A program made the translations under genes and the position numbers. From positions 4,902-68,901 of the forward strand of contig JBBACS010000003.1 in assembly GCA_041656855.1 (NCBI GenBank): a DNA stretch of 64,000 nt. The letters are read 5' to 3'. The stretch comes from Minisyncoccota bacterium (GTDB taxonomy: Bacteria > Patescibacteriota > Minisyncoccia > Phycocordibacterales > GWA1-40-21). Positions 7,227-49,902 of the stretch are shown here, piece after piece. Within the stretch, counting starts at the first letter, position 1. Each line of letters begins with the position of its first letter. Below the pieces are notes generated by a model. It searched no databases and was not told where the DNA came from. It saw nothing but the letters and a program-made list of their open reading frames with translations.

Positions 7227-7443
7227 TGGGTGGCTATCGGGGAGTTTCAGCTTACAGCCGCAGTACACCAAGAATCAGAGGGGGTTGGTCACAGCTTTTT
7301 TCTTCGCCGTCGCTCAGAAAAAGTTGCGAAGCTCTGCACTTGATTTTCTAATTCACTTCGTTCATAACAAAATCTACGCCCGACTCAGCTGATTTTTCTA
7401 CTGAAAAATCAGCTTCCATCTTTCAACCCTCGATAGCCATACC
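7227..7443 (-). ncRNA. tRNA-cognate minihelix-mimic element, His-type copy B (type II + TGTAA modules)
   Basis: On the minus strand, the 5' part tggctatcgagggttgaa is antisense to the tRNA-His 3' end (ttcaacccccgatagcca). The 3' end ctccccgatagccaccca is a verbatim sense copy. It also contains the 14-nt-loop hairpin and the GTAC/TGTAA hairpin. Confidence 0.65.
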
Positions 7444-7452
7444 AAAAATATG

Positions 7453-7577
7453 TATCGGGGAGTTTTTCCTTACAGGAACTGTACACCTTTCGTATCGTAC
7501 TCACTACGTTTCGTGCGATATACTCAAGGTCTTCAACCCCCGAACGTAAGTGCCTACTAGCACTTACTTAGCCGCCC
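7453..7577 (-). ncRNA. tRNA-cognate minihelix-mimic element, His-type copy A (type I)
   Basis: On the minus strand: gggcggcta, hairpin gtaagtgc..gcacttac, tcgggggttgaa (antisense of the tRNA-His T-arm), accttGAgta..tacGAaaggt, gtacag-ttccTGTAAggaa-aaa, then ctccccgata. Confidence 0.65.
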
Positions 7578-7903
7578 AAATGAAAAAGACGGCTTAACGC
7601 CGCTTTTTCATTTGGGTGCATAGGGGGTCTAGAACAATCTACTACCAACAACCACAAAGGTATTTGAGCTATTTTCAGCGTATCAAAAATAGGCGTGTCG
7701 GTCACTATATAAAAAGATCAGAAGTGTTCATTAGTACACTACCCGTCTTATGCTTCCTTTTTTTCAAAAACAGAAGCATTCCATCAATCACCGTAAGAAT
7801 GGTTCAGAGAATTTTGAGTGTTTTTATAAATAAGTTCCAGAATAAATCATGGTCAAACGACGGTCTAGAACTAAAAACACAAATGGCTATAGATCTTTCT
7901 CAA

Positions 7904-8371: not shown

Positions 8372-8452
8372 AATTTATTTGAGAATTTTCTTATTTAATT
8401 GTTCGAACTATTCCAACAACAACAAGACTGGCGTCAGATATTTTTTTGCCTA

Positions 8453-9229
8453 TTATTCGGTAGCAAGCCGAATATGGCCGCATTGGCCATTCAAACTTTC
8501 AACCACCTTCATTACATCATCAATCTGAGGTTCATAAGCGGTAATTTTATCGCCATTTTTAAGTTTAAGAGTTACCAGTTTACTGTGAGTTTGAAATACG
8601 CTTTCCACCTCACAATTATTAATAGCTGTTAAAACTATATTCCAGTTACTATTGGCTTCATCAGTAAAGTTTCGACCGTCGGGAGTAGCACATTGTGACG
8701 GGTTGGATTTCATTATAGAAAAGCCAGCAGTAACACAATCATCAAAATTTCTGATCGTGGCCAATAGTTCGTTGCATCTTTCATGGCTCACCATATCACT
8801 TTTAGGTAGACATTCTTTTAATTTGTCGGTTAATGTAGTGTCTTTCGTGACTAGATTTTCAGCAATACTCCACAAAGAATAATACCGGCTATAGTATCTA
8901 TGGACAGCAACAGCGCTCGTTTTGTCATCTGATTTAAAAAAATAACCTGACCCAATTTGTTCTGTAAAATCATAACCCTTTTCTTTCATGAAAGATTTGA
9001 TTATCTCTAGTTTATCACTTTTTGTAATATACTTATTTTCTCCTATATCTAATTTTACAATGTCTTTATTACCAAAATTTAATTGGGCTATTCCTTTTAT
9101 TTGCGGCCAAGGATTACCTTCCTGAAAGATAGCTGGGAAGTAAAAAAGTATAAAAACACCTAGCAGTAAAATAATAATGGAGGTAATAAGTAGAACATTT
9201 TTATTTTTTAATGAGTGTTCAAAAATCAT
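8453..9229 (-). CDS. hypothetical membrane-anchored/secreted protein
   Basis: 258-aa ORF with a single N-terminal TM (VLLITSIIILLLGVFILFYF). Several Cys residues in the C-terminal half. Confidence 0.6.
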   Translation of the reverse strand: MIFEHSLKNKNVLLITSIIILLLGVFILFYFPAIFQEGNPWPQIKGIAQLNFGNKDIVKLDIGENKYITKSDKLEIIKSFMKEKGYDFTEQIGSGYFFKSDDKTSAVAVHRYYSRYYSLWSIAENLVTKDTTLTDKLKECLPKSDMVSHERCNELLATIRNFDDCVTAGFSIMKSNPSQCATPDGRNFTDEANSNWNIVLTAINNCEVESVFQTHSKLVTLKLKNGDKITAYEPQIDDVMKVVESLNGQCGHIRLATE

Positions 9230-9420
9230 AGTGGATTATTATTTTTCTTCTTGCTCCTGATCACAACGACTATAATGACAATAATGAGTATGAGACCTAT
9301 CCCTTGCAATCCTGGACTATCATCAAATTCACCGAATACAATAAAAAATGTTCCCAACAATATTGCTAGAATTTTCGGGGTCCAGTATAAGATTTTATTT
9401 TTTATATCAGAATAGTTCAT
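9226..9420 (-). CDS. small membrane protein
   Basis: 64-aa ORF with two TM helices. Its stop overlaps the next ATG (ATGA, 9226-9229), suggesting translational coupling. Confidence 0.55.
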   Translation of the reverse strand: MNYSDIKNKILYWTPKILAILLGTFFIVFGEFDDSPGLQGIGLILIIVIIVVVIRSKKKNNNPL

Positions 9421-9508
9421 TTGTTTGTATTATATCTTAAAAATTCACTTTATTAAAAGACTGATTTTTATAATAAAACAAAAAAGCGACCAAAAGTCGT
9501 TATTTTTG

Positions 9509-9656
9509 TTTACAATTCTTTCGGCATTAGAATCACAGCTTTGTAGCTCTCCCTCGATTCTACGCGATAAAAATGTCCTAGCGGAATAAGTGAGTCTGGG
9601 ACCAAAATTTTATAAAACTAAAGCGAACCGGTCGCAAAACCAGTCGCTCACTCTTG
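9509..9656 (-). ncRNA. rearranged fragment of the mimic-element family directly downstream of tRNA-His
   Basis: On the minus strand it shares tgagcgac...ctttag, ggtcccagac, agcggaataagtga (inverted), gaatcgagggagag and cacagct with type II copies. No closing tRNA-like stem is present. Confidence 0.4.
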
Positions 9657-9728
9657 GGTGGCTATCGGGGGTTGAACCCGAACAAAGAGTTCCACAAACT
9701 CTTGTGCTACCGCTACACCATAGCCACC
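9657..9728 (-). tRNA. tRNA-His (GUG)
   Basis: Cloverleaf read by eye: G-1 plus gtggcta / tagccac acceptor, anticodon arm agagt-ttGTGga-actct, T-arm tcggg-ttcaacc-cccga, discriminator C. No complete encoded CCA. Confidence 0.9.
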
Positions 9729-12408: not shown

Positions 12409-12523
12409 TGGGATTCTGTCACAGCTCTTTTCTTCGCCGTCGCTCAGAAAAAGTTGCGACCCCGACTCAGCTGATTTTTCTACTGAAAAATCAGCTTCCG
12501 TCTTTCGAATCCCTTAGCACCCA
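12409..12523 (-). ncRNA. tRNA-cognate minihelix-mimic element, Val-type (type II, 3' end truncated)
   Basis: The minus strand begins gggtgctaagggattcgaa, which is antisense to the tRNA-Val 3' end. Then an 11-bp hairpin agctgattttt..aaaaatcagct and the hairpin ctttttc-TGAGCGACGGCGAA-gaaaag. It ends gaatccca. Confidence 0.6.
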
Positions 12524-12577
12524 ATAAAAAATGGCCAAATGCTCCATGTATTCGCATTTGACCTATTTTTTAATCAG

Positions 12578-12707: not shown

Positions 12708-13733
12708 CTAAACACTCTTGAATTTGTTCAAATCTAAATAAACCAATTTTGCTCTACCTTCAGATTCAATAATAGGAAATATTATCTTTTTACCAACAAC
12801 TTTTTTGTCATGAATAATCATTCCCAAATCAACTTTCATACTTTGATCTATTTTAATCCCTAGAGTTTTTAATAAGTTTAACAAATTTTCTCTAACTCGA
12901 GGTTTAGTTAGCCAAAGTGATTCGGTGAAAGCCAACTCTTTAATCATTCCAATGAGCACTGCTCTTCCATGACTAATCTTATATTTTAATTCAATAGCAT
13001 GTCCAAACGTGTGCCCAACATTAAGTGCCTGCCTGATATTATTATCTTTAAAATCATTTTTAACAAAATATTCTTTCACTTTAATAGACTTATTTATAAT
13101 TATTGGCAAATCATGACTTTTGACTAAAGTTCTAATAGAATATTTTTTAAGAAAAGATAATATTGAAGTATCTTTTATCAAACCAGCTTTAATTATTTCA
13201 CCGAGCCCATCAATGACTTGTTCATTAGATAATGATTTCATAAAGCGAGTATCAATAATTGTAGACACAGGCAAATAAAAACTACCAATTAGATTTTTAT
13301 ATTCTAAAAAATCAACAGCAGTTTTTCCACCATGAGAACTATCTACTTGTGCCAATAATGTTGTTGGCACTTGAATATATTTTATTCCACGGAGATATAT
13401 AGACGAAGCAAAGCCAACAATGTCCCCAACTGTGCCACCTCCAAAAGCAATAACAATACTTTTTCTATCGAGATTAAGATTTAAAAATTTCTCGAGTAAT
13501 TTTTCTAATTCATTCCAGCTTTTTGCTTTTTCACCATCAGGAATTATAATAATGTTTGATTTTTTGATACCAATTTCTTTAATAGCCCAATTTAATTTTT
13601 TAGATAATTTTAAAGAGGTAACGAGACAAACTTTTGATGGTTTTTGAACTTTTAATATTTTGTGGATTGATTTTAAAGAGTGTGTAAGGGACATGGAAAT
13701 ATTATAACATGACAAACATAATACAAATTTCAT
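12708..13733 (-). CDS. aroB: 3-dehydroquinate synthase-like sugar phosphate cyclase
   Basis: IAFGGGTVGDIVGFASSIYLRGIKYIQVPTTLLAQVDSSHGGKTAVD and NVGHTFGHAIE. The track start 13766 is a TTG; ATG candidates are 13733 and 13694. Confidence 0.8.
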   Translation of the reverse strand: MKFVLCLSCYNISMSLTHSLKSIHKILKVQKPSKVCLVTSLKLSKKLNWAIKEIGIKKSNIIIIPDGEKAKSWNELEKLLEKFLNLNLDRKSIVIAFGGGTVGDIVGFASSIYLRGIKYIQVPTTLLAQVDSSHGGKTAVDFLEYKNLIGSFYLPVSTIIDTRFMKSLSNEQVIDGLGEIIKAGLIKDTSILSFLKKYSIRTLVKSHDLPIIINKSIKVKEYFVKNDFKDNNIRQALNVGHTFGHAIELKYKISHGRAVLIGMIKELAFTESLWLTKPRVRENLLNLLKTLGIKIDQSMKVDLGMIIHDKKVVGKKIIFPIIESEGRAKLVYLDLNKFKSV

Positions 13734-13768
13734 ACGCTTTTCCTTTGGGGCCCAACCCAAACTCAAAG

Positions 13769-13901
13769 CCCCCTTGGCAGGAAGTTCGACCGTTACACGG
13801 TCAGTACCCCCATTGGAGATTTTGTTTCGCTACACTCACAAAATCTGCTCAATGGGGCTTCGATTCCTGACGTGAGCAAAGACTTTTGCTCACTCCAAGG
13901 C
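13769..13901 (-). ncRNA. tRNA-cognate minihelix-mimic element, Arg(UCU)-type (type I)
   Basis: On the minus strand: gccttgg, hairpin gtgagcaaa..tttgctcac, tcaggaatcgaa (antisense of the T-arm), ccccattg..caatgggg helix, gtactg-gaccgTGTAAcggtc-gaa, then cttcctgccaaggg. Confidence 0.65.
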
Positions 13902-13945
13902 ACAAAATTAAAATCACCCATTTACTATGGGTGATTTTAATTTTG

Positions 13946-18147: not shown

Positions 18148-21100
18148 TTAAACTACAAAATTCATATTTATAACTCCACTCTTTATATCTATAGCTTCTG
18201 TTTTGAATACTTCGGTATAAGTGCCATCATCTTTCTTCTTCTCTACTTTGATGGAATATTTTCCTTTAGGTACAAGAGCATAATAGTCTCCAAATTTGTC
18301 AGCGATTTTCTTTGTAAGCGGAGTATCTTCACCTTCTCTAAAGATTTTTACTATAGCAAAAGATAGAGGAATTTTAGTGTTCTTTTCTATAAGGGTACCT
18401 GATTTCTTTGATTTCAATACTACATAATTGAGTATGTAAGCAAGAAAGTAGAAACCAACTATTATATAGTTATAGGGTTCAGGTGTCACTATTACAGCAA
18501 TTACTGATATAAGTGCACCAATAATAAAAACAAATTTTGATATCTTTGCCCAAGTAATATCTTTTTGTTTAGTGAATTTATTTACATCCATCTTTGTTTT
18601 AGCAAATTCATTCCAATCGAATGATAGAGAGTCCATAGGGATATTCTTTGTAATCATTTCTCCTTCAGAAACTATAAGTTCTTCACCGAAATATAAATCA
18701 TTGTAAACTTCATCAAATGATTTACCTGCCATTTTCTTTGATGGTTGTATGTAGTTTGTTTTTGTAGCAACTATTTTGTATTTACCTGGTAGTACAAGGA
18801 ATCCATATCTTCCATCTATGTCTGTAATAGCTCCGGCTACTTCTTTGTTAGTCTCTGTGCTTACAAGAGATACATATACTGGATCAAGTGGTCTCTTTGT
18901 GACTGAATCATATACTGTACCCCATTGTCTTTGCTTTCTTCTGATACCTAGAGCTCCTGCAAGTAGTCCAAACATTCTTGTAGGAATGAGCCAGACTTCT
19001 GAAAATGATATTGGTGTAGCAAAAGCGACAGTTGATATTGAAGCAGCTACTCCAAAAACTAATGCTGTAGTAGTTACAACTTTTGCAGTAATAGATATTG
19101 TGGAATCATTAAATATATTTTTGATTTTTAGAATAGCTTCTTGTACAAGGAAAGATACTTGTCCATAGCTTTCTTTTATAGTATCTATTGCTCCAAGTAT
19201 AAGCTGTTGATCAAAAATATCATTAATATCAAATGATGGTTTTTCTGCTGTTGGTTTTGTTACTTCAGGTTTGGTATCAGGTTTTGTTTGAGTAACTTCT
19301 GGAATAGTTGTATTTGTATCTGGAGTAATTATTTCTGGGATTATTTGTTCAACTGTAGTTGTAGATATTTCTTCAGTAGTTGTTGCTACTTTTTCGGTTG
19401 TTGTAGCTTTGGTTTCGAAGATGGTGATACAATTATTATCTAATAGATTGTTGACATATTCTCTCGTTAGATTTCCAAAGTTTCCTGTACCTGTAGTAAG
19501 TCCTATTGGTGCTAAAATTTTATCAAAATTTGCTTCTTGTAATCTTTTTACAGCATTTGTTGTCTTAGTACCATAGAAATATGTTTCGTTTTCATATGAA
19601 CCTGGACCTGATGTGCTTACAGTAAAGTTGTTTTCATTAAGAAAGGTTTGAAGTTTCAAAACATCTAATGGATTGTTGTCCGCTGGTGCTGGAAATAGAT
19701 TTGAAGTAAAACAGAATCCTTCTTTTATACGAGATCCGGGTAATTTAGTATCGATATCTTTATCTTCTTCAACTATTATGATAGTGTCAGGAGTTGATGA
19801 TTTTGTAACTATTATTGTTGTCGTTGTTGAAATATTACCAAATATTAAACCAGTGATAGTTGTTGTACCTTCTCCTTGTGCATGAAATACTCCAGAGTCA
19901 TCTATTCTTCCAACAGATGAATCTGATGTGGACCAATATACTTTTGTATTTATTGAATTACCATATTGATCTAATATTTCTGCAGTAAATTGTTTTGTTG
20001 TGTCTAGATTAATAGAAGAATTTTCTGGAATAATTCTAAATGTTGTAAGGACTGAAGGTTCTTGAGTTTCTGTTATAACTCTTCTACTGCTTCTTCTTGA
20101 TGGAAATATCCAGTTTGTATTTCCTCCTCCGTCAACACAACCTACTAGACAATAGAAAGGTTCTGAGCTCAAGTTGTGGGAGCCAGAGATATTGAGGTAT
20201 GAGAACGAGGGAGTTTCAGAGCCAGTATATAATATATTTGTGTATGGTAAATTTGATGCTAAAGAAATCTTTTGAATTTTATTCTGACTTCCTCCATCTG
20301 CGACAAAAATATTTCCTGATGAATCAATATCTAGACCATAGGGACTACTGAATTCTCCATTGCCAGTTCCAGCATAACCAAAGGCATAGATTAAATTGAA
20401 ATAAGAATTATAAATTCGGAAACGATAACTACTAGGCTCGGCAACAATAATATTGTTATTACTATCTATACGTACAGTGGTAGGATATATGAGGCCATCT
20501 TTTTCACTACTTGGAGGTCCACCAATTTGAGAAACATAATTACCTGATGAATCGAATTTTTGGATTCTGTGATTTGCTGAGTCAGCAACATAAATGTTTC
20601 CAAAAGAATCTAGTGCAATGCCATTTGGTTGATTAAATTGTCCATTTCCATCACCCGCAGTTCCAAACTGAGAAAGATAGTTTCCGGAAGAATCAAATTT
20701 TTGAACACGATAATTATTTTGATCAACCACATAAATATTTCCTGTAGGATCAATTGCTACACCTCTTGGATAATTCAATTGTCCATCTCCACTTCCCGCA
20801 GTTCCTATAGTCTGGAGTAAATTACCAGATAAATCTGTTTTTAATATTCTATTACAGTGGTCAGATATAAAAAGATGACCTTGAAAATCTCCGGTTATAT
20901 TAAAAGGTCCACAAAAACCACCCATTCCACCAAAAGTGATGTTTTGATCAAAATAAGAAAGAACATTAAAATCATTATCAAATTTTATTACTCTACCACC
21001 AGATTCGACTTCATAAAAATTATCTTCTTCATCAACAAATATATTGTATGGTGATATAAAACCTCCCAAAGTACCATTTATATAAGATCCAATTGATGAA

Positions 21101-23550
21101 TAAAACGAATACCTTGATGGAATAAATTTATACATTTTATTGTTTGAAGAACCTGTCACAAATACATCACCTGAAGAATTTACAGAAACATGTGTTGGAC
21201 TTGTGAGCTGATTTGTACCATCAACGTCTCCACTGATTGTAGCAAAAACAGCTCCTTCTGAATTAAAAATTTGAATTCTATGATTATTGGTATCAGCTAC
21301 ATAAAGATAACCGGAGGAATCTAAATAAATACCTGTCGGACTATCAAATTGTCCCAATCCACTACCATAAGAACCAATTGAAGGCAAAAAATTTCCCGAG
21401 GAATCGAATTTTTGAATGCGATTATTCCCAGTATCAGATACATATATATTTCCCAAAGAATCTATTTTTATATCATTAGGCCCACTAAACTGTCCTTCTC
21501 CAGAACCACTTGAACCAAATTGAGAAACATAATTACCGGATGAATCAAATCTTTGAATTCTATTATTTCCTTGATCCACTACATACAAATTTCCCCCACT
21601 ATCAAAATCCATCCCCCTTGGATTATTAAACTCACCATTACCATTTCCAGGGGCTGGAGATGTTGATCCTATAGTCTGAAGTAGTGTACCATTCTGATCA
21701 AATTTTAATACACGACTACACTGGTCTGAGAAATAGATATTTCCAGATGTATCTCTTACTATATCAGACGGACCACAATGATTATTATAAGAAAATTCAG
21801 ATAAAAGATTCATATATTTATCCATAGTCTTAACACGTCCACCTTGTTCAATTGAATATATATTTTCAGATGAATCAATATCCATGCCAGCTATAGTCCA
21901 GAAAAAATCATTTACAGATCCGTCAATAAAATATAAATATGAATAATCAATTGAAGATCCAGAAGCTAAACCAATGGATAACAAATTATCAATACTTCCA
22001 TTTAAGGCTAATGTACCTGTTATTGTGGTTGTGTCTCCGGCAGGAGATAGTAATGACGATGTAGAGCTTGATTGTTTTGTAAGATTTTCAAATGTATTAT
22101 CACCAGAAATAGTTTGCGAAACGCCCACAAAATTTACTGTTCCACCGTTAGCAATAAATGTCCCTCCAATCTTTGACCAATTTCCATAGACATTGAGAGT
22201 GTAACCATTCAGGTCGAGAGTACCACCAAACAAAATTGTTAAATTATTGATACTCTCATCTTTAGTAAGTGTAACGGTGCCTACAGAAATATTTGCATTA
22301 CTGTTAATATCTGTACTACTTGTAGAAATAAAATTTATTGTTCCACCATTTTCTATAAGAGAACCGGAAATTATTGCAAAATTCCACCAACTAGATACAT
22401 TTAGCGTATATCCGGCCAAATCTAAAGATGCACCATTAAAAATTACCACTCTATCCGCACTTTGATCATGTGTAAGCGTTACAGTACCAGTACCTATATC
22501 GACTTCATCATTAATTCCAGGATAAGTTGAACCTTCTATCGGCACAGCAGGAATCTTGGAAGAATTATTTATGGCTGTTTTTGGCGTACCATCTGGATTA
22601 AAAACAACAACTCTATTATGAAACATGTCACTAGCATAAATATCCCCGGAAGTAGCAACATTTACATCAGCCATATAATCTATACTATCTATAAAATTAT
22701 ACTGTTCAATCAAAGTAAAATCTAAATTATACAATCCAACAGCACTATTACCGGGGCTCTGAACAAGACCGACGTATAATTGACCATTTGATGGAATTTT
22801 CAATCCCCAAAAACCATAACTAGATGGCGGTAAAAATTCTGACGATGAGGCTGTTCCATCTGGATTTAATATCCTCGCATAGTTATGAGGAGAAACTAAA
22901 TAAATTTCACCCGTTGTTGGAGAGATTGTTATACCAAACGGTTCTGATGCAGCTATAGTTGTAGAAGCATTACCTTCTAAATCCATAACCACAATTCTAT
23001 TGTTATTAGTATCTGTTATATAAATATATCCATTATGTATGGCAATATCTGATGGGTGATCTAATGCGAGTCCATCATAAAGAGTTGAGCTAGCAAAAGT
23101 ACTATAGAGAGTTCCGTCAGGATTGGCGATTGTAATATAACCACCAGATTGATTTACAATGTAAACTCTGTCAGATGTGGGATCAACTTCTGCTCCCATA
23201 GGCCCATTTAAACCTAGATTTGTTATCTGTGCGATTGGTACATTATTTGAATCAGCTATTATCAGGTAACTATTACCGCAAGAAGTAATGTACAAATTTC
23301 CAGTATTAGGAGAAATTGCTATATCTCTTGGTTGGTTAAGAATTATATTCGTACCAGTATTACCCCATGTTGTCGGACTATTCCAATCGCCTGAAGTATT
23401 TGTGGAAAAAGCCGTTGCAAAACTATTTATATTAAATATCTTTTTCCAATTTTCTTTAGGAACAGCAAAAGTAGCAGTAAGAACAATAACAAAAAGAACA
23501 AGGGTGGTGATAAATAAAGGGGATTTGATTGTGATATTAGACGAATTCAT
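18148..23550 (-). CDS. giant (~1800 aa) cell-surface protein: NHL-repeat beta-propellers, Ig-like (Big_2), PG-binding-like, TM segments and CarboxypepD_reg-like domains
   Basis: More than 15 NHL repeats (NNRIQKFDSSGNY.., GQFNQPNGIALDS..). Big_2-like FTAEILDQYGNSINTKVYWSTSDSSVGRIDDSGVFHAQGEGTTTITG. PG_binding-like LKLQTFLNEN...AVKRLQEANF. DIDGRYGFLVLPGKYKIVATK. N-terminal anchor. The track start is a GTG; ATG at 23550. Confidence 0.85.
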   Translation of the reverse strand: MNSSNITIKSPLFITTLVLFVIVLTATFAVPKENWKKIFNINSFATAFSTNTSGDWNSPTTWGNTGTNIILNQPRDIAISPNTGNLYITSCGNSYLIIADSNNVPIAQITNLGLNGPMGAEVDPTSDRVYIVNQSGGYITIANPDGTLYSTFASSTLYDGLALDHPSDIAIHNGYIYITDTNNNRIVVMDLEGNASTTIAASEPFGITISPTTGEIYLVSPHNYARILNPDGTASSSEFLPPSSYGFWGLKIPSNGQLYVGLVQSPGNSAVGLYNLDFTLIEQYNFIDSIDYMADVNVATSGDIYASDMFHNRVVVFNPDGTPKTAINNSSKIPAVPIEGSTYPGINDEVDIGTGTVTLTHDQSADRVVIFNGASLDLAGYTLNVSSWWNFAIISGSLIENGGTINFISTSSTDINSNANISVGTVTLTKDESINNLTILFGGTLDLNGYTLNVYGNWSKIGGTFIANGGTVNFVGVSQTISGDNTFENLTKQSSSTSSLLSPAGDTTTITGTLALNGSIDNLLSIGLASGSSIDYSYLYFIDGSVNDFFWTIAGMDIDSSENIYSIEQGGRVKTMDKYMNLLSEFSYNNHCGPSDIVRDTSGNIYFSDQCSRVLKFDQNGTLLQTIGSTSPAPGNGNGEFNNPRGMDFDSGGNLYVVDQGNNRIQRFDSSGNYVSQFGSSGSGEGQFSGPNDIKIDSLGNIYVSDTGNNRIQKFDSSGNFLPSIGSYGSGLGQFDSPTGIYLDSSGYLYVADTNNHRIQIFNSEGAVFATISGDVDGTNQLTSPTHVSVNSSGDVFVTGSSNNKMYKFIPSRYSFYSSIGSYINGTLGGFISPYNIFVDEEDNFYEVESGGRVIKFDNDFNVLSYFDQNITFGGMGGFCGPFNITGDFQGHLFISDHCNRILKTDLSGNLLQTIGTAGSGDGQLNYPRGVAIDPTGNIYVVDQNNYRVQKFDSSGNYLSQFGTAGDGNGQFNQPNGIALDSFGNIYVADSANHRIQKFDSSGNYVSQIGGPPSSEKDGLIYPTTVRIDSNNNIIVAEPSSYRFRIYNSYFNLIYAFGYAGTGNGEFSSPYGLDIDSSGNIFVADGGSQNKIQKISLASNLPYTNILYTGSETPSFSYLNISGSHNLSSEPFYCLVGCVDGGGNTNWIFPSRRSSRRVITETQEPSVLTTFRIIPENSSINLDTTKQFTAEILDQYGNSINTKVYWSTSDSSVGRIDDSGVFHAQGEGTTTITGLIFGNISTTTTIIVTKSSTPDTIIIVEEDKDIDTKLPGSRIKEGFCFTSNLFPAPADNNPLDVLKLQTFLNENNFTVSTSGPGSYENETYFYGTKTTNAVKRLQEANFDKILAPIGLTTGTGNFGNLTREYVNNLLDNNCITIFETKATTTEKVATTTEEISTTTVEQIIPEIITPDTNTTIPEVTQTKPDTKPEVTKPTAEKPSFDINDIFDQQLILGAIDTIKESYGQVSFLVQEAILKIKNIFNDSTISITAKVVTTTALVFGVAASISTVAFATPISFSEVWLIPTRMFGLLAGALGIRRKQRQWGTVYDSVTKRPLDPVYVSLVSTETNKEVAGAITDIDGRYGFLVLPGKYKIVATKTNYIQPSKKMAGKSFDEVYNDLYFGEELIVSEGEMITKNIPMDSLSFDWNEFAKTKMDVNKFTKQKDITWAKISKFVFIIGALISVIAVIVTPEPYNYIIVGFYFLAYILNYVVLKSKKSGTLIEKNTKIPLSFAIVKIFREGEDTPLTKKIADKFGDYYALVPKGKYSIKVEKKKDDGTYTEVFKTEAIDIKSGVINMNFVV

Positions 23551-23611
23551 TGTTAAATAATACACTAAAAAATATATTTGAAAATGATGTCTTTCGTGAT
23601 ATTATATTCTT

Positions 23612-24465: not shown

Positions 24466-24655
24466 AAAGGGGCGAGATTCGGCTATTACTTAGCCAGGTA
24501 CTTTTCCGCTTCATATTATTAAGAGAGGGCGAGAATTTCGAAACTTACAGTTTCAGTACACCTTTTCTATTTTATATTCGTGATTACACTCTATAAAATT
24601 ATCAAAGGTCTTCGAATCTCGCACGAAAGCTCTCCCAGAGCTTTCTCCTCTGCGC
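24466..24655 (-). ncRNA. tRNA-cognate minihelix-mimic element, Ser-type (type I, with a second partial 3' module)
   Basis: On the minus strand: gcagagg, hairpin gaaagctc-tggg-gagctttc, gcgagattcgaa (antisense of the T-arm), accttt-GA..GA-aaaggt, gtactg-gaaacTGTAAgtttc-gaaa, then ttctcgccctctc. A second gtacctggctaagtaa..gaatctcgcccc module follows. ORFs 24580..25263 and 24591..24773 are spurious. Confidence 0.65.
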
Positions 24656-24692
24656 ATAAAAAATCACGCTGTTTCCAGCGGACTTTTTTATG

Positions 24693-28875: not shown

Positions 28876-28947
28876 CCTCTCATCGTTCAATGGATAGGAT
28901 AAACCCTTGCGAAGGGTTTGATGTTGGTTCGATTCCAACTGAGAGGA
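28876..28947 (+). tRNA. tRNA-Arg (GCG)
   Basis: cctctca acceptor, D-arm gttc-aatggata-ggat (with G-U pairs), anticodon arm aaccc-ttGCGaa-gggtt, T-arm gttgg-ttcgatt-ccaac, then tgagagg plus A. Confidence 0.8.
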
Positions 28948-28981
28948 CAAAATGAAATACCCGAAAGGGTTTTTTCGTTTT

Positions 28982-29145
28982 GTCCTCTCAAGCAAGCAAA
29001 CTGCTTTGCTTGCGGGTTTGAATCGAACAGCGGAATGATATTTTTTCAGCAGAAAAATGAATGAGCTGGTGCCCAGACAAATCCGAGTGACGACGAGGAT
29101 TTAGTCGCGGGAGATAAATGTAATCATGTTCCAACTGAGAGGACA
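28982..29145 (+). ncRNA. tRNA-cognate minihelix-mimic element, Arg(GCG)-type (type II)
   Basis: gtcctctca, hairpin gcaagcaaa-ctgc-tttgcttgc, gggtttgaatcgaac, agcggaat, hairpin tttttc-agca-gaaaaa, gaatgagctggtgcccagac, hairpin aaatcc-GAGTGACGACGA-ggattt, agtcgcgggaga, then ttccaactgagaggaca (verbatim tRNA 3' end). Confidence 0.7.
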
Positions 29146-29147
29146 AC

Positions 29148-29173
29148 AAAAAATCCCCTTTCGGGGATTTTTT
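29148..29173. terminator. bidirectional intrinsic terminator (mimic element / rpsT)
   Basis: aaaaaatcccc-tttc-ggggatttttt. Confidence 0.85.
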
Positions 29174-35988: not shown

Positions 35989-36150
35989 TGTGCGCTTAGT
36001 TGGACACGCTTCGCATTCTCCCTCGACTAAAGCTTCGTCGTCACTCAGCTTTGTCTGGGCACCAGCTCATTCGTCCCGCAAGCTTGCGGGACATTATTCC
36101 GCTGTTCGATTCCAACACACAAGCAAAGCAGTTTGCTTGTTTAAGCCACA
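35989..36150 (-). ncRNA. tRNA-cognate minihelix-mimic element, Lys-type (type II)
   Basis: On the minus strand: tgtggcttaa, hairpin caagcaaa-ctgc-tttgcttg, gttggaatcgaac, agcggaat, hairpin gtcccgca-agc-ttgcgggac, gaatgagctggtgcccagac, hairpin aaagc-TGAGTGACGACGAA-gcttt, agtcgagggaga, then tccaactaagcgcaca (verbatim tRNA-Lys 3' end). ORFs 35990..36178, 36000..36251 and 36153..36365 are spurious. Confidence 0.7.
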
Positions 36151-36169
36151 AATTATTTATAAAAATTTG

Positions 36170-44116: not shown

Positions 44117-44157
44117 CAAAAGAAAATAAGTGGCTTAGGCTGCTTATTTTCTTTTGT

Positions 44158-44290
44158 CGGAGTGAGTAAGCAAACCACTTTGCTTACGTTCGGGATTCGA
44201 AAAGGTTCTCCCATATTTTTGAGCAATTAATATTGCGAGAAAATGGGAAACCTGTACTGCTCCTGTAAGGAGAGAAATTCCCGGCACTCG
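44158..44290 (+). ncRNA. tRNA-cognate minihelix-mimic element, Pro-type (type I)
   Basis: cggagtg, hairpin gtaagcaaa-ccac-tttgcttac, ttcgggattcgaa, aggttctcccat..atgggaaacct helix, ttttt-GA-gcaat..attgc-GA-gaaaa, gtactg-ctccTGTAAggag-agaaa, then ttcccggcactc. ORF 44008..44226 is spurious. Confidence 0.7.
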
Positions 44291-44295
44291 TTCGT

Positions 44296-44329
44296 TTCCA
44301 TAATTTGGGGTGGGACCCAAATTATGGAA
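44296..44329. terminator. bidirectional hairpin terminator (mimic element / cca)
   Basis: ttccataatttggg-gtggga-cccaaattatggaa. Confidence 0.7.
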
Positions 44330-44341
44330 TCTTTCTCTCTA

Positions 44342-45874
44342 TTAAACCTTATGACTCTTTCTAATCTCCTTTAATTCTTCCTCATTTTCTTCCTCTTTCC
44401 TTTCTTTTCCTTCCTCCCCCATTTCTCTCAATTTTTTTTCTGGAAGCTTTATAAGTTCAATAGCTTTTTTATTTAAATATTCTTCTGTATTTCTTTTTGG
44501 ATCATCCAGAACTTCTTCAAGAAGTGCATGTAAAACGAAACCAATTTTGGGTCCAGGAATTTCGCCTGTTACATCCATAATTTTTTTACCATCAATGTTA
44601 AGCATTCCAACAGAAATCGGGTCTCTCATAGCTTCATCAAGCATTGCATGATACTTTCTCAGTCTATATGGATCTTCTTTTGGCCTGCCCATTCCTATTC
44701 TATCGCAAGCTCGCAAATCCATAAGATCCCAGACATTATCTTTTCCAACTCTAGCTACAATTCTTCTAACAGCTGATAAACTGATGAGTTCTGTATCAGC
44801 AAAAAACATATGTACTCTAACGAATTTAGTAACTTTTTCTATAACTTTTGCAGGAAATCTCAAATCTTGTAAAATCTTTTCTGTCATTCTCGCACCAATT
44901 ACTTCATGCCCATAAAAAGTTGGCTTTTTCTCCCCCTCTCTTTTAGATTTAGGCTTCCCTATATCATGCAATAGGGCCGCAAGTCGAACTTCTAATGAAA
45001 GTTTTTTATCAGCAGCGTGTTGCAAAGATTTCAGTGAATGTTCCCATACATCATGTATATGTGCACCGCCTTGTTCTATTCCGATAGTTTTTTCTAATTC
45101 CGGAATAATATATTTTAATAAGCCGAATTTCAGACAAGATTTTAGCCCATGTGCCGGCTCACTAGACATAATTATTTTTGTAAATTCATCACGAATTCTT
45201 TCTTTTGCAATGTTTGAAAGTAAATTTGATTCTTCTGCTAATGCTTTTTCAGTTGCGCTATCAATTTCAAAACCGACATAGTTTCCTATTCTTACAGCAC
45301 GCAATATTCTAAGTCCATCTTCTTGAAATCTTTCATGCGGATTTCCTACAGTTTTTAGAACTTTATTTTTTAAATCTTCCTGACCGGAAAATAGGTCAAC
45401 GATTTGTCCTTTATAAAAATCTTTCTTACTTACCACTAGGTCAGCAGACTTTTCGTGACTTCCCTCATCTTCAATACTCAAAGCAATAGCATTTATCGTG
45501 AAATCTCTCCTCTTTAAATCATCTTCAAGCTTATTACTGAAAGTAACCTTGTCTGGCCTTCTATTGTCAGAATATTCAGATTCAAGCCTATATGGGGTCA
45601 CCTCAATCACTTTGAGTGTTTCATCGGAAACCGTTTCGTTTACTACACCTACAGTTCCATAATTGTTTTCATAAAAAGTATCAGGAAATATCTTTATAAT
45701 TTCTTCTGGTTTAGCATTTGTCGTAAGATCCCAATCTTTAGGTTTCACACCAATCAAAATATCACGAACACAACCCCCTATTAAATAGGCCTCAAATCCA
45801 ACACCTTTAAGTTTTTGTGAAACTTCTAGGACTTCCTTTGGAATTGGACCGTATTCTGTGATAGTTTTTTTCAT
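44342..45874 (-). CDS. cca: CCA tRNA nucleotidyltransferase with HD domain
   Basis: YLIGGCVRDILIG, DWDLTT, RRDFTINA, LRILRAVR and LLHDIGKP. Confidence 0.9.
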   Translation of the reverse strand: MKKTITEYGPIPKEVLEVSQKLKGVGFEAYLIGGCVRDILIGVKPKDWDLTTNAKPEEIIKIFPDTFYENNYGTVGVVNETVSDETLKVIEVTPYRLESEYSDNRRPDKVTFSNKLEDDLKRRDFTINAIALSIEDEGSHEKSADLVVSKKDFYKGQIVDLFSGQEDLKNKVLKTVGNPHERFQEDGLRILRAVRIGNYVGFEIDSATEKALAEESNLLSNIAKERIRDEFTKIIMSSEPAHGLKSCLKFGLLKYIIPELEKTIGIEQGGAHIHDVWEHSLKSLQHAADKKLSLEVRLAALLHDIGKPKSKREGEKKPTFYGHEVIGARMTEKILQDLRFPAKVIEKVTKFVRVHMFFADTELISLSAVRRIVARVGKDNVWDLMDLRACDRIGMGRPKEDPYRLRKYHAMLDEAMRDPISVGMLNIDGKKIMDVTGEIPGPKIGFVLHALLEEVLDDPKRNTEEYLNKKAIELIKLPEKKLREMGEEGKERKEEENEEELKEIRKSHKV

Positions 45875-45939: not shown

Positions 45940-46011
45940 GTGCCTGTGGTGAAATGGATATCACAACAGTCTTCGGAACTGTTGTTGCGGGTTCGATTCC
46001 TGCCAGGCACA
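45940..46011 (+). tRNA. tRNA-Arg (UCG)
   Basis: gtgcctg acceptor, D-arm gtga-aatggata-tcac, anticodon arm acagt-ctTCGga-actgt, T-arm gcggg-ttcgatt-cctgc. No mimic element follows it. Confidence 0.85.
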
Positions 46012-46052
46012 CATTGGAAGCAATTAAAAATATGGCTTAATTTTAGTTTTTC

Positions 46053-46081
46053 TTGACTTTTTATATATAATATGATAATAT
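46053..46081 (+). promoter_or_regulatory. candidate sigma70-type promoter for 46128..46400
   Basis: TTGACT, 17 nt, TAATAT. The AAAATATGGCTTAA motif lies just upstream (46027-46040). Confidence 0.4.
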
Positions 46082-46127
46082 ATTTACAGGTTAAACGCAG
46101 TAAAATATCATATTGGAGGGATAAAAA

Positions 46128-46400
46128 ATGGGTTTTCTTATTTCAGTCGCTATCCTTATTGTGAGTTCTCTGATTAGCGGTTTTGCTTTGAAATTGCTTT
46201 GGGGCTGGTTTTTAGTCCCCAATCTCGGACTTCCAGTAATTTCACTCGTACAATCCACAGGAATTGTTCTTATTGTTGAGCTCTTAACTCACAATTACAT
46301 TCCTATGGGAAAAGAGGAGAGGTTGCGGGGAATCATCCACAAAATTGCCGATCCTATAATTATAGTGGCAATTGCATGGGTTCTTCAATTTTTGATGTAA
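46128..46400 (+). CDS. small membrane protein (orphan, strong SD)
   Basis: 90 aa with three TM helices. SD attGGAGGgataaaaaATG, a 15-nt context identical to the gene at 29603. Terminator at 46421-46456. Confidence 0.6.
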   Translation: MGFLISVAILIVSSLISGFALKLLWGWFLVPNLGLPVISLVQSTGIVLIVELLTHNYIPMGKEERLRGIIHKIADPIIIVAIAWVLQFLM

Positions 46401-46510
46401 ACCGTTTTCCAATCATTACAGTCCCGTACAGAATTAAATTCTGTACGGGGCTTTTACTTTATAAAATATTTTCTTTTTTCAATTTTTGTGTATAATACTT
46501 TTAGTTATTT

Positions 46511-46581
46511 GCGAGCGTGGTTTAATGGTAGAACTAGTCCTTGCCAAGGATTGGGTCCGGGTTCGATTCCCGGCGCTCGCA
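46511..46581 (+). tRNA. tRNA-Gly (GCC)
   Basis: gcgagcg acceptor, anticodon arm agtcc-ttGCCaa-ggatt, T-arm ccggg-ttcgatt-cccgg. Confidence 0.9.
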
Positions 46582-46622
46582 CAAATGAAAAATACTCAGG
46601 ATTCTGAGTATTTTTCATTTGT

Positions 46623-46841
46623 GCGAGCGAGTAAGCAAATCTACTTTGCTTACGTCCGGGAATCGAAAACCTTGAGTATATTTTTGAACTTTTACTAAAG
46701 TGAAAAAATACGAAAGGTGTACCGTCCATGTAATGGAAGATAAGCGAAGCGGTCCCGGCGCATTTACCGTAGTAGATTATATTCGGGATAGGGCCTGAAT
46801 ATAATTTTGTAGAAAGTGTACTCACGGTTCCCGTCGCTAGC
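46623..46841 (+). ncRNA. tRNA-cognate minihelix-mimic element, Gly(GCC)-type (type I, with a second partial 3' module)
   Basis: gcgagcg, hairpin gtaagcaaa-tctac-tttgcttac, tccgggaatcgaa, acctt-GA-gta..tac-GA-aaggt, gtaccg-tccaTGTAAtgga, then ggtcccggcgc. A second gtgtactcacggttcccgtcgc module follows. ORFs 46486..46698 and 46505..46843 are spurious. Confidence 0.7.
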
Positions 46842-47186
46842 ATTTTTTAAAACCGTTTCCATAGGTTTTAAAAAATTTTTGAAATATTTTTTCAAAGACA
46901 CTCCCCTTTTTATTATCAGACACACAACAACATAATTTAGTAAAAAAGGAATAATATCTCAAAAACTAGGCCTTTAAATAAGCTCTTTTTTAGGCAAAAC
47001 TGTGGATAACTATGTTCATATGTTAATTAAAGACAGCTTTTTAAGGTCTGATAGAATTACGACTTTTATAGTCCTATATGCAATAAATGGCTATAAATAT
47101 AGCTAATTATAGAAATACGTCCTTAAAACCCTAAATGTCTAATATAAAGTGTTTCTTAGTAACACTTTATATCAGTTTCATGCCTG

Positions 47187-47298
47187 CCCCGTGTGAAATC
47201 CAACACATGACTTTTATATAACTTGGAAAAAATATGTTACACATGAAATCAAATACTAAAATATGGCTTAAATGTTAGGATTTCTTTACGGGGTGAAA
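47187..47298 (+). repeat. 112-nt direct repeat, copy 1 (upstream of yraN)
   Basis: ccccgtgtgaaatcca...gttacacatgaaatcaaatactaaaatatggcttaa...gatttctttacggggtgaaa. Confidence 0.75.
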
Positions 47299-47365
47299 AG
47301 TACAAATTCATGACTTATAAAGATTACACATGAAACACAAAACTATGATAATATGTTAGAAATAC

Positions 47366-47776
47366 ATGAAAAATATAACAGAAAAGCGAAAAACTGGTAA
47401 TCTAGGAGAAGATATTGCATGCAGGTTTCTCATGAAACAAGGCTTTAATGTTATAGAGAGAAACTATTTAAAGAAGTGCGGGGAAATAGATATAGTAGCT
47501 AAAAATAAGAACAAACTACATTTCATTGAGGTGAAATCTGTTTCATACGAAACAGTATCAAGTGTTTCGGGTGAAACATCTAAAGATGGGGAATTCAGAC
47601 CGGAAGACAATGTCCATCCATGGAAGCTACAACGCCTAGCAAAGACAGTACAAATTTATCTAACAGAGAAAGATGTTCCACATGAAACAAATTGGCAGTT
47701 TGACGTAATTACAGTATACATTGATAAAAAACGACTCGTTTCAAAGGTTTCTATACTAGAAAATGTAGTTTTGTAG
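47366..47776 (+). CDS. yraN: YraN-family (UPF0102) endonuclease-like protein
   Basis: GNLGEDIACRFLMKQGFNVIERNYLKKCGEIDIVAKNKNKLHFIEVKS, with an extra segment (VSYETVSSVSGETSKDGEFRPED) before the C-terminal helix. Confidence 0.8.
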   Translation: MKNITEKRKTGNLGEDIACRFLMKQGFNVIERNYLKKCGEIDIVAKNKNKLHFIEVKSVSYETVSSVSGETSKDGEFRPEDNVHPWKLQRLAKTVQIYLTEKDVPHETNWQFDVITVYIDKKRLVSKVSILENVVL

Positions 47777-47800
47777 CCATATTTTTATGTTTCACATTTA

Positions 47801-47907
47801 CCCCGTGTGAAATCCAGTTTAAGCTATACAAGCACTAATATATTGTGTTACACATGAAACCAGATGCTAAAATATGGCTAACAATAAGATTTCTTTACGG
47901 GGCGAAA
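47801..47907 (+). repeat. 107-nt direct repeat, copy 2 (downstream of yraN)
   Basis: ccccgtgtgaaatcca...gttacacatgaaaccagatgctaaaatatggctaa...gatttctttacggggcgaaa. Confidence 0.75.
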
Positions 47908-47920
47908 CATCTAGATTTTC

Positions 47921-47990
47921 AATATCCCACAAGGGGATACAGAAAAAATATAGTCGCTTTGCTCCTTATTTTTCAATAATAAAACCGCTC
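47921..47990 (+). repeat. 67-nt repeat (copy 2) with palindrome TATCCCACAAGGGGATA
   Basis: Matches 27997-28063. Confidence 0.7.
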
Positions 47991-48392
47991 CAAAACATTC
48001 TGAGCGAATAGTTTGGAACGGTTGCGAAAGAGATAATCTCGTAGTCCATTATTATCCCTATTTTACCTTTTTATCTTAAAATATAAAAATGTGATAATTT
48101 TGGGAAAGAAAGTAATAATGAATAACCAAATTAACCTTTCATTGTGAAGATTAGCTAGATCTTCTTAAAGAACAAATATATTGAAGTGTAAGGAGGATAA
48201 ATAAAGCGAGTTGCATCACTATATTTATCTAACACAACAAAATATAACCTAACAATATTATATGTCCTATAGAAATTATGTAAAGGACATCAACTGTTGA
48301 TAACTTGACAATGATATTTAATTCTAAAAGACATTAAAAATATGGCTAATAATAAAGATAGAATGGATATTTGACTAAGATTGAATTGGTGA

Positions 48393-49157
48393 TTATTTCA
48401 ATTCAAGCAAAATAGGGCAGTGGTCACTTCCAAAAATATTATCCAAAATTTCTGCCTTTTTAATTTTTTCTTTCAAATTTTCTGAAACAAAAAAGTAATC
48501 AATTCTCCAGCCAATATTTCTATCTCTTGCAAAAGTTTTCATGTCCCACCAACTGTATTGTATTTTTCCAGGATGCAAACTGCGAAATGTATCAATATAT
48601 CCATGAGAAATTACTTTATCTATCCATCCTCTTTCTATGGACAAGAAACCCGTATTTTTTTCATTTTCTTTTGGCCGAGAAAGGTCGATCTCCATATGAG
48701 CAGTGTTTACATCACCGCAAAAAACAACATCTTTGCCATTCTTTTTTAATTTATCAACAAATTTTAAAAATTCATCGTAATATTCCATCTTAAAATCAAG
48801 TCTTTCTTGTCCGCCACCGCCATTTGGAAAATAAACATTCAAAAGCACGAAGTCCTTATAATAAGCCACCAAAGTGCGTCCTTCATTATCAAATTTTAGT
48901 ATCCCAATGCCATATTCTACCTTTTCAGGCTTAACTTTTGAGAAAATAGCCACTCCGCTATAACCTTTCTTAAGTTTTGAGTGATCAAAATAAGAATGAT
49001 AACCGAGAGGGGAGCGGACTTCTTCAGGAAGTTGTTCAGGGTGAGCTTTTGTTTCTTGCAAACAAATAATATCAGGGTCAGCTTCAAAAATAGTACCAAA
49101 AGCACCTTTTTTATGAATAGCCCTTAATCCATTTACGTTCCAAGACAATATCCTCAT
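48393..49157 (-). CDS. xth: exodeoxyribonuclease III (AP endonuclease)
   Basis: MRILSWNVNGLRA, DIICLQETK, NVYFPNGG, GDVNTAH, WWDMK and GSDHCPI. Confidence 0.95.
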   Translation of the reverse strand: MRILSWNVNGLRAIHKKGAFGTIFEADPDIICLQETKAHPEQLPEEVRSPLGYHSYFDHSKLKKGYSGVAIFSKVKPEKVEYGIGILKFDNEGRTLVAYYKDFVLLNVYFPNGGGGQERLDFKMEYYDEFLKFVDKLKKNGKDVVFCGDVNTAHMEIDLSRPKENEKNTGFLSIERGWIDKVISHGYIDTFRSLHPGKIQYSWWDMKTFARDRNIGWRIDYFFVSENLKEKIKKAEILDNIFGSDHCPILLELK

Positions 49158-49309
49158 ATACGCAATTATATCATAATAGGGAATATGTTATAATATGTGT
49201 ATACTTGTCCCGTGCAAAATTCAATCTACACAAAAAACACACTATAAACGGGGAAGTATATTAAAAGTTTAGATAGTCGATTTTATCAATAATTAAATTT
49301 TTTTACGGG

Positions 49310-49660: not shown

Positions 49661-49682
49661 TTAGAAATCAACAACTAATTTT

Positions 49683-49874: not shown

Positions 49875-49902
49875 TTAAAAATGGAGTCATCTGACTCCAT
49901 TT

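Follow-up and report, generated by a model that had tools for sequence, protein, structure and literature searches.

Guide-bearing elements behind tRNA genes of Paceibacteria: a candidate family of small, protein-less insertion elements

We analyzed a 64,000-nucleotide (nt) stretch of contig JBBACS010000003.1 of a Minisyncoccota bacterium, referred to as the window, in which small structured elements lie directly downstream of tRNA genes. On balance, we consider it probable that these elements form a new family of small, protein-less, non-autonomous and guide-bearing insertion elements of Paceibacteria, belonging to the candidate phyla radiation (CPR), that restore the 3' end of their host gene. 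This reading is based on a fixed junction, a direct repeat tied to the guide, the replacement of the gene end, displaced native ends, the use of essential genes as targets, signs of stacking, truncation and turnover, and the lack of coding capacity. Of the possibilities raised in the initial annotation, the evidence thus favors the second, namely, a mobile element of small size and without autonomy whose insertion duplicates the 3' end of the tRNA. Neither Rfam 15 nor the searchable literature contains a description of the family. A scan of the whole window with Rfam 15 (gathering threshold and E ≤ 0.5) matched only the 11 tRNAs and nothing on the elements, in agreement with the earlier view that they belong to no described family and are not transfer-messenger RNA (tmRNA), Y RNA/YrlA or group I/II introns; literature searches returned no description of the family.

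Read in the direction of the tRNA, an element is composed of a hairpin (hp1), a first guide segment (seg1), a second hairpin (Ph), a second guide segment (seg2), a core, and a direct copy of the tRNA 3' end. It measures ~150-250 nt, of which the core accounts for ~90-110 nt. Seg1 comprises 9 nt antisense to tRNA positions 66-74 and seg2 12 nt antisense to positions 54-65, which amounts to a guide of ~21 nt. The exemplar behind tRNA-Arg(GCG) has the following features.

28876..28948, plus strand: tRNA-Arg(GCG), the host gene (ARAGORN; Rfam RF00005, 57.2 bits).
Last 16 nt of tRNA-Arg(GCG), plus strand: copy 1 of the direct repeat, positions 59-74, TTCCAACTGAGAGGAC (from the sequence).
28949..28981, plus strand: hp1, a terminator-like hairpin (A-tract, GC stem, T-tract) that occupies the entire spacer (sequence reading).
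28982..28990, plus strand: seg1, GTCCTCTCA, antisense (9/9) to the acceptor 3' strand, the discriminator and C74.
28991..29013, plus strand: Ph, the conserved hairpin AGCAAGCAAA-CTGC-TTTGCTTGC, at which the guide is split, at the T-stem/acceptor junction.
29016..29027, plus strand: seg2, GTTTGAATCGAA, antisense (11/12) to the T-loop and the T-stem 3' strand (positions 54-65).
29028..29128, plus strand: T1 core, a three-way-junction domain (R2 match 29016-29121, 85.9 bits; covariation).
29129..29144, plus strand: copy 3, a direct repeat of tRNA positions 59-74, read as the displaced original 3' end.
29148..29173, plus strand: intrinsic-terminator-like hairpin 3' of copy 3.

This arrangement corresponds element by element to the earlier description of the locus. 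The acceptor 3' strand, hp1 and seg1 form a single long palindrome at this site, and hp1-like hairpins are present in all tRNA-linked copies. The 9-bp stem of Ph, GCAAGCAAA-CTGC-TTTGCTTGC, lies at 28992-29013; the core contains a GGA/GAG internal loop, a GGUGCCCAGAC...AGUCGCGGG stem and the hairpin loop GAGUGACGACGA; and TTCCAACTGAGAGGAC(A) was found at 29129-29145. Two details are read differently here. The segment that follows Ph had been described as T-stem-like, which is correct as far as it goes, but its reverse complementarity covers the T-loop as well as the T-stem 3' strand, so that it is more than a T-stem 5' strand. The hairpin at 29148-29173 exists as reported; instead of belonging to the element, it is probably the native tRNA terminator, common to the convergent rpsT gene.

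The cores fall into three types (T1, T2 and T3), all of which are three-way junctions with a closing helix made of seg2 paired with the 3' copy. T1 is characterized by a GGAGC...GCGAG internal loop, GGGGUCG, a hairpin capped by GAGYGACGRCGA and the 3' end GUGACCGA. T2 contains a P2 hairpin, GUAC, a short hairpin with a UGUAA loop and then GAAAUU, and T3 is a shorter relative of T2. Compensatory changes were detected by RNAalifold in 20 of the 22 pairs of T1 and in 17 of the 21 pairs of T2/T3, so that the covariation check suggested in the initial annotation supported the helices of these types. The proportion of paired cells in T1 was 92.6%, as compared to 62% for shuffled sequences and 36-49% when the partners were slid. 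The T1 alignment (127 sequences) contained 75 G:U but only 15 A:C pairs, and the sense strand folded better than the antisense strand in 23 of 28 elements; the structure, be it formed by RNA or by single-stranded DNA, therefore resides on the host-sense strand. The elements thus have what marks structured non-coding RNAs in general, namely, helices backed by covariation on a single strand. A sigma-70 promoter scan between tRNA and element revealed no promoter-like site. The shape of Ph is conserved, and often also its sequence, with covarying variants in relatives, and the seg2 motifs AATCGAA, ATTCGAA and GGTTGAA track the T-loops of the neighboring tRNAs (TTCGATT, TTCGAAT and TTCAACC, respectively). 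Even if the elements were host RNA modules, T1, T2 and T3 would constitute three new, well-supported structured RNA families absent from Rfam. As a separate observation, the loops GAGYGACGRCGA of T1 and GAGUGNAACGAA of T2, for example at window positions 29085-29096 and 12440-12451, are closed by possible tandem G-A pairs in a k-loop-like manner, and this module common to T1 and T2 could be a candidate protein-binding site.

Elements of this kind are not confined to the window. The CCA-adding enzyme encoded there, used as a search query, led to relatives that are metagenome-assembled genomes of Paceibacteria/Parcubacteria; numbers preceded by L denote loci of such relatives or of metagenomes. 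In 80 related loci, the 12-nt antisense segment (≤2 mismatches) was found downstream of 59 of 256 tRNAs and upstream of 12 of 252. A covariance model of T2/T3 gave 34 matches in 1.27 Mb, 32 of which sit 27-216 nt 3' of a same-strand tRNA. The element thus adjoins tRNAs in the relatives' loci examined as well, and the motif counts for hairpin and core exceeded those of every shuffle. Antisense enrichment, covariance-model placement and shuffles agree that the pattern is far beyond chance, as had been claimed for the nine individually matched copies of the window.

A scan of metagenomes for the T1 pattern returned at least 122 matches; the figures given from here on apply to the matches listed. 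A same-strand tRNA is present ≤400 nt upstream in 86 of the 122 T1 matches, at a median distance of 71 nt, and at least 33 tRNA anticodon types carry T1 elements. With the T1 model, at least 135 copies were identified in 100 of the metagenome loci listed, with up to six per 12-kb stretch. Many of the metagenome matches came from the Hainich wells. Dense T1 clusters were noted in L294 (six matches in 12 kb) and L261 (six matches), implying dozens of copies per small genome. In streamlined CPR genomes, the elements reach a very high density, with ~9 copies in the 64 kb of the window. A T2-motif scan of IMG/VR viral contigs gave 46 matches, all of which were due to chance or coding sequence and lacked stem complementarity.

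The geometry of insertion was derived from 78 independent metagenome T1/tRNA pairs. Seg2 had ≤2 mismatches in 65 of these 78 pairs and, in 54 of the 65, ended exactly 3 nt before CGGAGC. The duplicate starts at T-loop position 59 in 45 of 60 cases, and the direct repeat corresponds exactly to positions 59-74 (16 nt), with unrelated flanks, in 23 of 27 intact cases. This repeat is the part of the target that is paired with seg1 (9 nt) and the first 7 nt of seg2; the remaining 5 nt of seg2 pair with the five bases that directly precede the 58|59 junction. The pentamer at the junction is TTCGA in tRNA and tmRNA, and GACGA, GTCGA, GGCGA or the less similar GACAA and CACCA elsewhere. From this geometry, we infer that the guide pairs with the target. 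Copy 1, on the upstream side, ends with C74 and passes directly into hp1. In genomes whose tRNA genes encode CCA, this triplet is kept in copy 3 in 11 of 32 cases, as compared to 4 of 32 for copy 1; therefore, copy 3 is taken to be the displaced native end, and copy 1 to have come with the element.

The guide corresponds more closely to the functional gene than to the sequence behind the core: a complete match (9/9) of seg1 to the neighboring tRNA was observed in 21 of 40 elements, and to anything in the element's own 3' region in 9 of 40. In many copies, including those at tRNA-Pro and tRNA-Gly(GCC) of the window, the 3' copy lacks the acceptor part while seg1 still fits the tRNA. Such tracking by the guide despite a decayed downstream copy could reflect repeated re-homing, templated correction of inverted repeats, or an RNA function in place.

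T1 matches without an upstream tRNA follow other genes, namely, tmRNA, topA and rpsI. The Rfam family RF00023 (tmRNA) ends just 5' of the element in at least five loci (L269, L285, L299, L308 and L340). In L325, L345, L349 and L357, the host sequence is the C-terminal zinc-finger end of DNA topoisomerase I (topA), with a 747-amino-acid TopA open reading frame (ORF) visible in L345. The third host gene (L352, L354 and L356) encodes a small basic protein ending in ...ARRAPQWSKR, which we take to be the C-terminal tail of ribosomal protein S9 (rpsI). The tmRNA- and topA-linked copies carry a Ph hairpin of the same kind. At the topA and S9 loci, Ph and seg2 (plus seg1 in L349) are in antisense arrangement to the coding sequence ~60 nt before the stop codon, and the core end GUGACCGA is followed by a second copy of the gene from the guide-paired point onward. 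The displaced topA end still reads TIPERCS.K.CP.HNPHK...stop in 3 of 4 loci and the displaced S9 end KR-stop in 2 of 3; thus, 5 of the 7 displaced ends are still open reading frames. The displaced and upstream topA copies differ in ~20-28% of their bases, with 0 to 3 changes in the 18 residues TIPERC…HNPHK, which fits a foreign donor but also an intron-like use of the downstream copy. Because the same T1 core and split guide sit behind the topA and rpsI coding sequences, a tRNA minihelix is not the essence of the element.

Signs of turnover are frequent. Arrays were found in the window at the His, Ser and Gly(GCC) sites, at tRNA-Gly(UCC) of L001 and in L364. Remnants are either distal and 5'-truncated, or 3'-truncated with an unrelated gene in place of the rest (L001, L002 tRNA-Pro), and one core type is nested inside another at tRNA-Gly(GCC) of L004. 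The core type at the same tRNA differs between relatives, and tRNA-Gly(UCC), empty in the window, is filled in L001, L004, L010 and L079. We also noted the ill-matched seg1 GTCGAGGC(A/G) in three genomes, at tRNA-Gly(GCC) of L002 and L004 and at tRNA-Gly(UCC) of L010, where it stands beside a perfectly or nearly matched seg2. This shared segment may point either to independent renewal of seg1 and seg2 or to a move of one element lineage from one Gly tRNA to another.

The following mechanism would be compatible with these data. A leader, in most cases a terminator hairpin, is followed by the antisense guide in two parts and by a core that folds on the host-sense strand. The element lies within the 3' end of a conserved gene or behind it (58|59 in tRNA; tmRNA, topA or rpsI) and would bring a replacement for the displaced part of that gene. 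The host gene would be kept intact upstream (copy 1), and its native end would be pushed 3' of the core (copy 3), where it would decay. The guide, either a folded single-stranded DNA or an RNA transcribed together with the host gene, may pick its target by base pairing and would place the joining reaction 5 nt in from its 3' end, with catalysis provided by a trans-acting enzyme or by the core itself. As a more tentative extension, which we regard as possible rather than probable, the family may represent a self-contained nucleic-acid-guided mobile element, in which the 21-nt split guide programs the site and the ~100-nt core is either a new small ribozyme with a reverse-splicing-like joining activity or a handle for a host enzyme. 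If that is the case, a minimal and naturally reprogrammed targeting system would operate across nearly every tRNA, tmRNA and some essential protein genes of a major CPR lineage.

Several observations weigh against the insertion-element reading. Movement is deduced and not seen, because no empty/filled pair of otherwise identical alleles was found. Exact-protein look-ups retrieved same-strain contigs only, and both contigs that span the Arg(GCG) locus still carry the element; the flanks of tRNA-Gly(UCC) in relatives showed no synteny with the window. In addition, no partner enzyme was detected in the window or near the 122 listed elements. Clustering of neighboring ORFs (≤3 kb from these elements) revealed housekeeping genes only and no recurrent recombinase, reverse transcriptase or transposase; no integrase adjoins any of ~200 copies, and the Xer-like gene of the window is located 3-43 kb from element copies. 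The guide:target mismatches showed no excess of wobble pairs (18 vs 12, not significant) and thus do not demonstrate selection on guide pairing. The guide also follows host-gene changes between orthologous elements, as seen at the Gly(GCC) acceptor (window, L010 and L001) and at synonymous sites of topA, which could mean function in place instead of mobility. The displaced topA and S9 ends that appear open in sequence would fit recency but also use of the downstream copy. Finally, this reading does not account for the joint gain of a new guide and a new host-end replacement for each target; this co-reprogramming for dozens of targets is the most interesting question raised by the family.

If the insertion-element reading is true, these would be the smallest known site-specific insertion elements, with target choice residing in a short internal antisense segment and not in a protein, and they would offer natural programmable targeting with a ~100-nt structured core. 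They would also account for much of the unannotated intergenic sequence beside Paceibacteria tRNAs and bear on the tolerance of mobile DNA in reduced genomes.

Other explanations were considered. The elements may be non-autonomous members of the IS200/IS605 type, similar to palindrome-associated transposable elements (PATEs), in which folded single-stranded DNA would be mobilized in trans by a Y1 transposase and inserted downstream of a pentanucleotide, for instance the TTCGA of the T-loop. The internal guide for the cleavage site would then be formed by the 3'-terminal 5 nt of seg2, and the core with the next 16 nt would resemble the scaffold of an omega RNA or right-end element RNA (reRNA) with its flank-derived guide; PATEs are reported to carry omega RNAs that are used in trans, with the flanking DNA as guide (PMC10055086). 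Several features agree with this scenario: an insertion point directly behind TTCGA (tRNA, tmRNA) or, at other host genes, behind pentamers similar to it, the hairpins near both ends, a structure on one strand only, no need for a promoter, and a ~100-nt scaffold directly followed by 16 nt of flank. The repeat at the junctions is at least 16 nt long and could be element-borne. We nevertheless consider this explanation unlikely, since TnpA, TnpB and IscB were found neither in the window nor near the 122 listed elements (~2 Mb of related loci), and no match to the IS605/HEARO RNA families of Rfam was obtained. Furthermore, IS200/IS605 elements have internal guides of 4 nt and carry no host-gene copy, and with copy 3 as its guide, a TnpB-type nuclease would cleave the very host gene that the element had restored (TTCGA followed by 59-74). 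The elements also occur in both orientations with respect to the direction of replication inferred from GC skew.

A host-beneficial role would be an alternative to mobility. The elements could be cis-acting RNA modules of the 3' trailer that pair with the end of the upstream transcript, serving in processing, read-through handling or 3' protection, with the duplications as relics of their origin. Their constant position downstream on the same strand, without an own promoter, and the selection of the structure on the sense strand speak for such a role, as does the complementarity between the guide and the functional upstream gene, which is maintained at orthologous loci although the downstream copy decays. 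However, the modules are dispensable, given that 3 of the 11 window tRNAs have no element and that the same tRNA is empty or filled among relatives. Core types are replaced at one site, stacked and truncated, the guide pairing shows no wobble excess, and the exact 16-nt repeat and the displaced whole gene ends are signatures of insertion and not of a regulatory leader. It is therefore doubtful that the elements are host modules.

Rather unlikely is an intron-like or ribozyme element, in which the guide would act as an internal guide sequence and the core would cleave or ligate at 58|59. Transcripts would be joined to the downstream copy as an alternative 3' exon, and the reverse reaction together with DNA copying would spread the element. 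The guide helix does span the junction, with 5 nt on the upstream side and 16 nt on the downstream side, and the element has the orientation of its host and lacks a promoter. Its core is conserved and shows covariation, and at topA and S9 the downstream copies retain the reading frame and the stop codon despite a ~20-28% base difference. On the other hand, group I and II introns are far larger than this core, no ribozyme family of Rfam matches it, and the host gene is complete without splicing. Copy 3 is not needed either, since it is decayed or truncated in more than half of the tRNA cases.

The main reading of the initial annotation was a mimic of the tRNA top-half minihelix, acting as decoy or substrate for RNase P, RNase Z, the CCA-adding enzyme or aminoacyl-tRNA synthetases. 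In fresh copies, such as those at tRNA-Arg(GCG), at tRNA-Lys and at the end of the His array, seg1 and seg2 can indeed pair with the 3' copy, forming a stack of 9 or more acceptor-like and 7-12 T-stem-like base pairs that ends in the discriminator and C. This closing helix forms as a by-product of the guide and the duplicated target. The same core and guide occur on tmRNA and, without any tRNA features, on topA and rpsI; seg2 pairs with the T-loop instead of presenting one; the acceptor part of the 3' copy is absent from many otherwise well-kept copies; and the helix extends 2 bp past a normal acceptor stem. The mimic is thus not supported as the defining property, and we judge such a function to be very improbable.

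An origin from classical tyrosine-integrase islands directed at tRNA, tmRNA and gene 3' ends, be it as their attL/attR scars or as what deletions have left of them, explains the elements equally poorly, and we deem it highly unlikely. Integrase-borne islands target the T-loop of tRNA and tmRNA genes and the 3' ends of protein genes. The target classes match, the host receives a new 3' end from the element, the insert is bordered by a direct repeat, and a Xer-like tyrosine recombinase is encoded in the window. However, the elements are uniformly small, no integrase lies beside any of the ~200 copies, and neither the antisense guide nor the covarying single-strand core has a counterpart in attP sites. 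In addition, at least 33 tRNA types and other genes would require as many integrase specificities in ~1-Mb genomes.

Further candidates were rejected. Template/variable repeats of diversity-generating retroelements do not apply, as copy differences are not adenine-specific and tRNAs cannot be diversified; a T-box or riboswitch leader would have no downstream genes to regulate, because the neighbors are convergent; hammerhead, hepatitis delta virus (HDV) and twister cores show neither motifs nor an Rfam match; and CRISPR/TIGR arrays were considered and rejected.

Within the window, seven tRNAs, namely, Arg(GCG), Val, Arg(UCU), Ser, Lys, Pro and Gly(GCC), have an element directly 3' on the same strand, and none is present at Leu, Gly(UCC) and Arg(UCG), all as initially described. 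The count of eight out of 11 tRNAs with copies holds for these seven, but the His copies form an array 2 kb away and do not adjoin their tRNA. The copies other than the exemplar are as follows.

7230..7640, minus strand: His-type array (R1 match 7455-7543; R2 matches 7279-7433).
12409..12576, minus strand: Val element, with hp1, an unsplit guide GGGTGCTAAGGGATTCGAA without Ph, a T1 core and a truncated 3' copy (R2 match 12409-12515, 92.2 bits).
13769..13944, minus strand: Arg(UCU) element, with hp1, seg1, Ph, seg2, a T2 core and a 3' copy of 13 nt (R1 match 13777-13870, 78.3 bits).
24466..24691, minus strand: Ser element, with a T2 core followed by an older, 5'-truncated T3 remnant (R1 match 24529-24622).
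35989..36168, minus strand: Lys element, with a short hp1, seg1, Ph, seg2, a T1 core and a 3' copy of 15-16 nt (R2 match 36010-36116).
44118..44329, plus strand: Pro element, with hp1, seg1 (9/9), Ph, seg2, a T2 core and a truncated 3' copy (R1 match 44190-44284).
44296-44329, plus strand: terminal hairpin of the Pro element, TTTGGGGTGGGACCCAAA.
46583..46841, plus strand: Gly(GCC) element, with hp1, seg1 (9/9), Ph, seg2, a T2 core, a truncated 3' copy and remnants of an older copy (R1 match 46656-46758).

The His array lies 2.1 kb from tRNA-His (9656-9727). It opens with a degenerate His 3' end and hp1; a T2 and then a T1 element come next, followed by a T2 remnant truncated on its 5' side, and the array closes with the tRNA-His 3' end in an intact copy. 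Because it is headed by a degenerate His 3' end, tRNA-His or its array appears to have been relocated. The region in between (7616-9655) contains two minus-strand genes (7904-8371 and 8453-9229). Just 3' of T2-type elements, we observed a recurrent hairpin with A/T-rich arms around TTTGGGG-YGGG-ACCCAAA, in the window at 44296-44329, ~13720-13760 and ~46790-46830 as well as in L003, L004, L005, L010 and L043; it is either a terminator or an additional module of the element.

The genes of the window are ordinary housekeeping genes, such as those for RecJ, TpiA, RuvA, Fpg, ClpP, RNase Y, PNPase, PcrA, KsgA and the CCA-adding enzyme. A single Xer-like tyrosine recombinase, a YraN-family protein and a NYN-domain protein are also encoded, and no transposase gene was found in the 64 kb. 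None of the 11 tRNA genes encodes CCA; the discriminator is followed by a single C and then usually by an A-rich sequence, and the gene for the CCA-adding enzyme (44342-45874) lies among four tRNA genes. The cumulative GC skew falls steadily to ~46-50 kb (minimum near 46000-50000) and rises afterwards, which suggests a replication origin or terminus within ~46-50 kb, and the tRNA strand switches from mostly minus to plus near 37-43 kb. The ORF at 18148-23565 (minus strand, 1805 amino acids) is typical of the giant surface proteins of CPR bacteria, with numerous NHL-like repeats (…GNNRIQKFDSSGN…) and a membrane region at its C terminus, and has no relation to the tRNA-linked elements.

In comparison with known systems, the closest mechanistic analogies are the ends of IS200/IS605 elements, in which an internal guide pairs with the cleavage site, and the guide-exon pairing of mobile introns; each of them fails on defining features that were tested. 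Like IS200/IS605 PATEs, the elements are protein-less, have hairpin-rich ends and a strand-specific structure, pair a short motif with an internal guide, and place ~16 nt of flank behind a scaffold. They differ in a guide of 21 instead of 4 nt, in carrying a host gene end, in the absence of TnpA, TnpB or IscB from the loci searched, and in the lack of an Rfam match. Mobile group I and II introns similarly pair an internal antisense segment with host sequence at the junction, insert on the same strand into conserved genes and possess a structured RNA core. In contrast, the present cores, three-way junctions of 76-120 nt, are several-fold too small, without recognizable catalytic domains, an intron-encoded protein or an Rfam intron match over the window, and the host gene is restored by duplication and not by splicing.

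The bridge or seek RNAs of IS110/IS1111 are likewise non-coding RNAs with guide segments, separated by stem-loops, that specify a DNA target. They are encoded with a recombinase, pair with both strands of target and donor, and are associated with a 2-bp core repeat, whereas here a single strand is the pairing partner of both guide halves, the repeat measures 16 nt and no recombinase ORF was found. In H/ACA guide pockets and RNase P external guide sequences, two guide strands also flank a hairpin and pair with one continuous strand in a three-way junction, but these act in trans on RNA without DNA duplication. An acceptor/T-stem-like stack, as in YrlA Y RNAs, tmRNA and viral tRNA-like structures, can be drawn for fresh copies; however, its stems copy whichever gene is upstream, with no mimic of T- or D-loop and no linkage to Rsr/Ro.

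Islands and prophages with tyrosine integrases, finally, are much larger than the inserts of 150-250 nt described here and encode an integrase, and they have no two-part antisense copy of the target, covarying single-strand core or fixed 16-nt identity block tied to a guide. They resemble the elements in their target classes, the crossover in the T-loop region, the replacement 3' end that keeps the host intact, the direct repeat on the far side and tandem accretion at one tRNA. In accordance with this style of integration, we found the repeat of positions 59-74, the CCA kept in copy 3, and the displaced topA and S9 ends.

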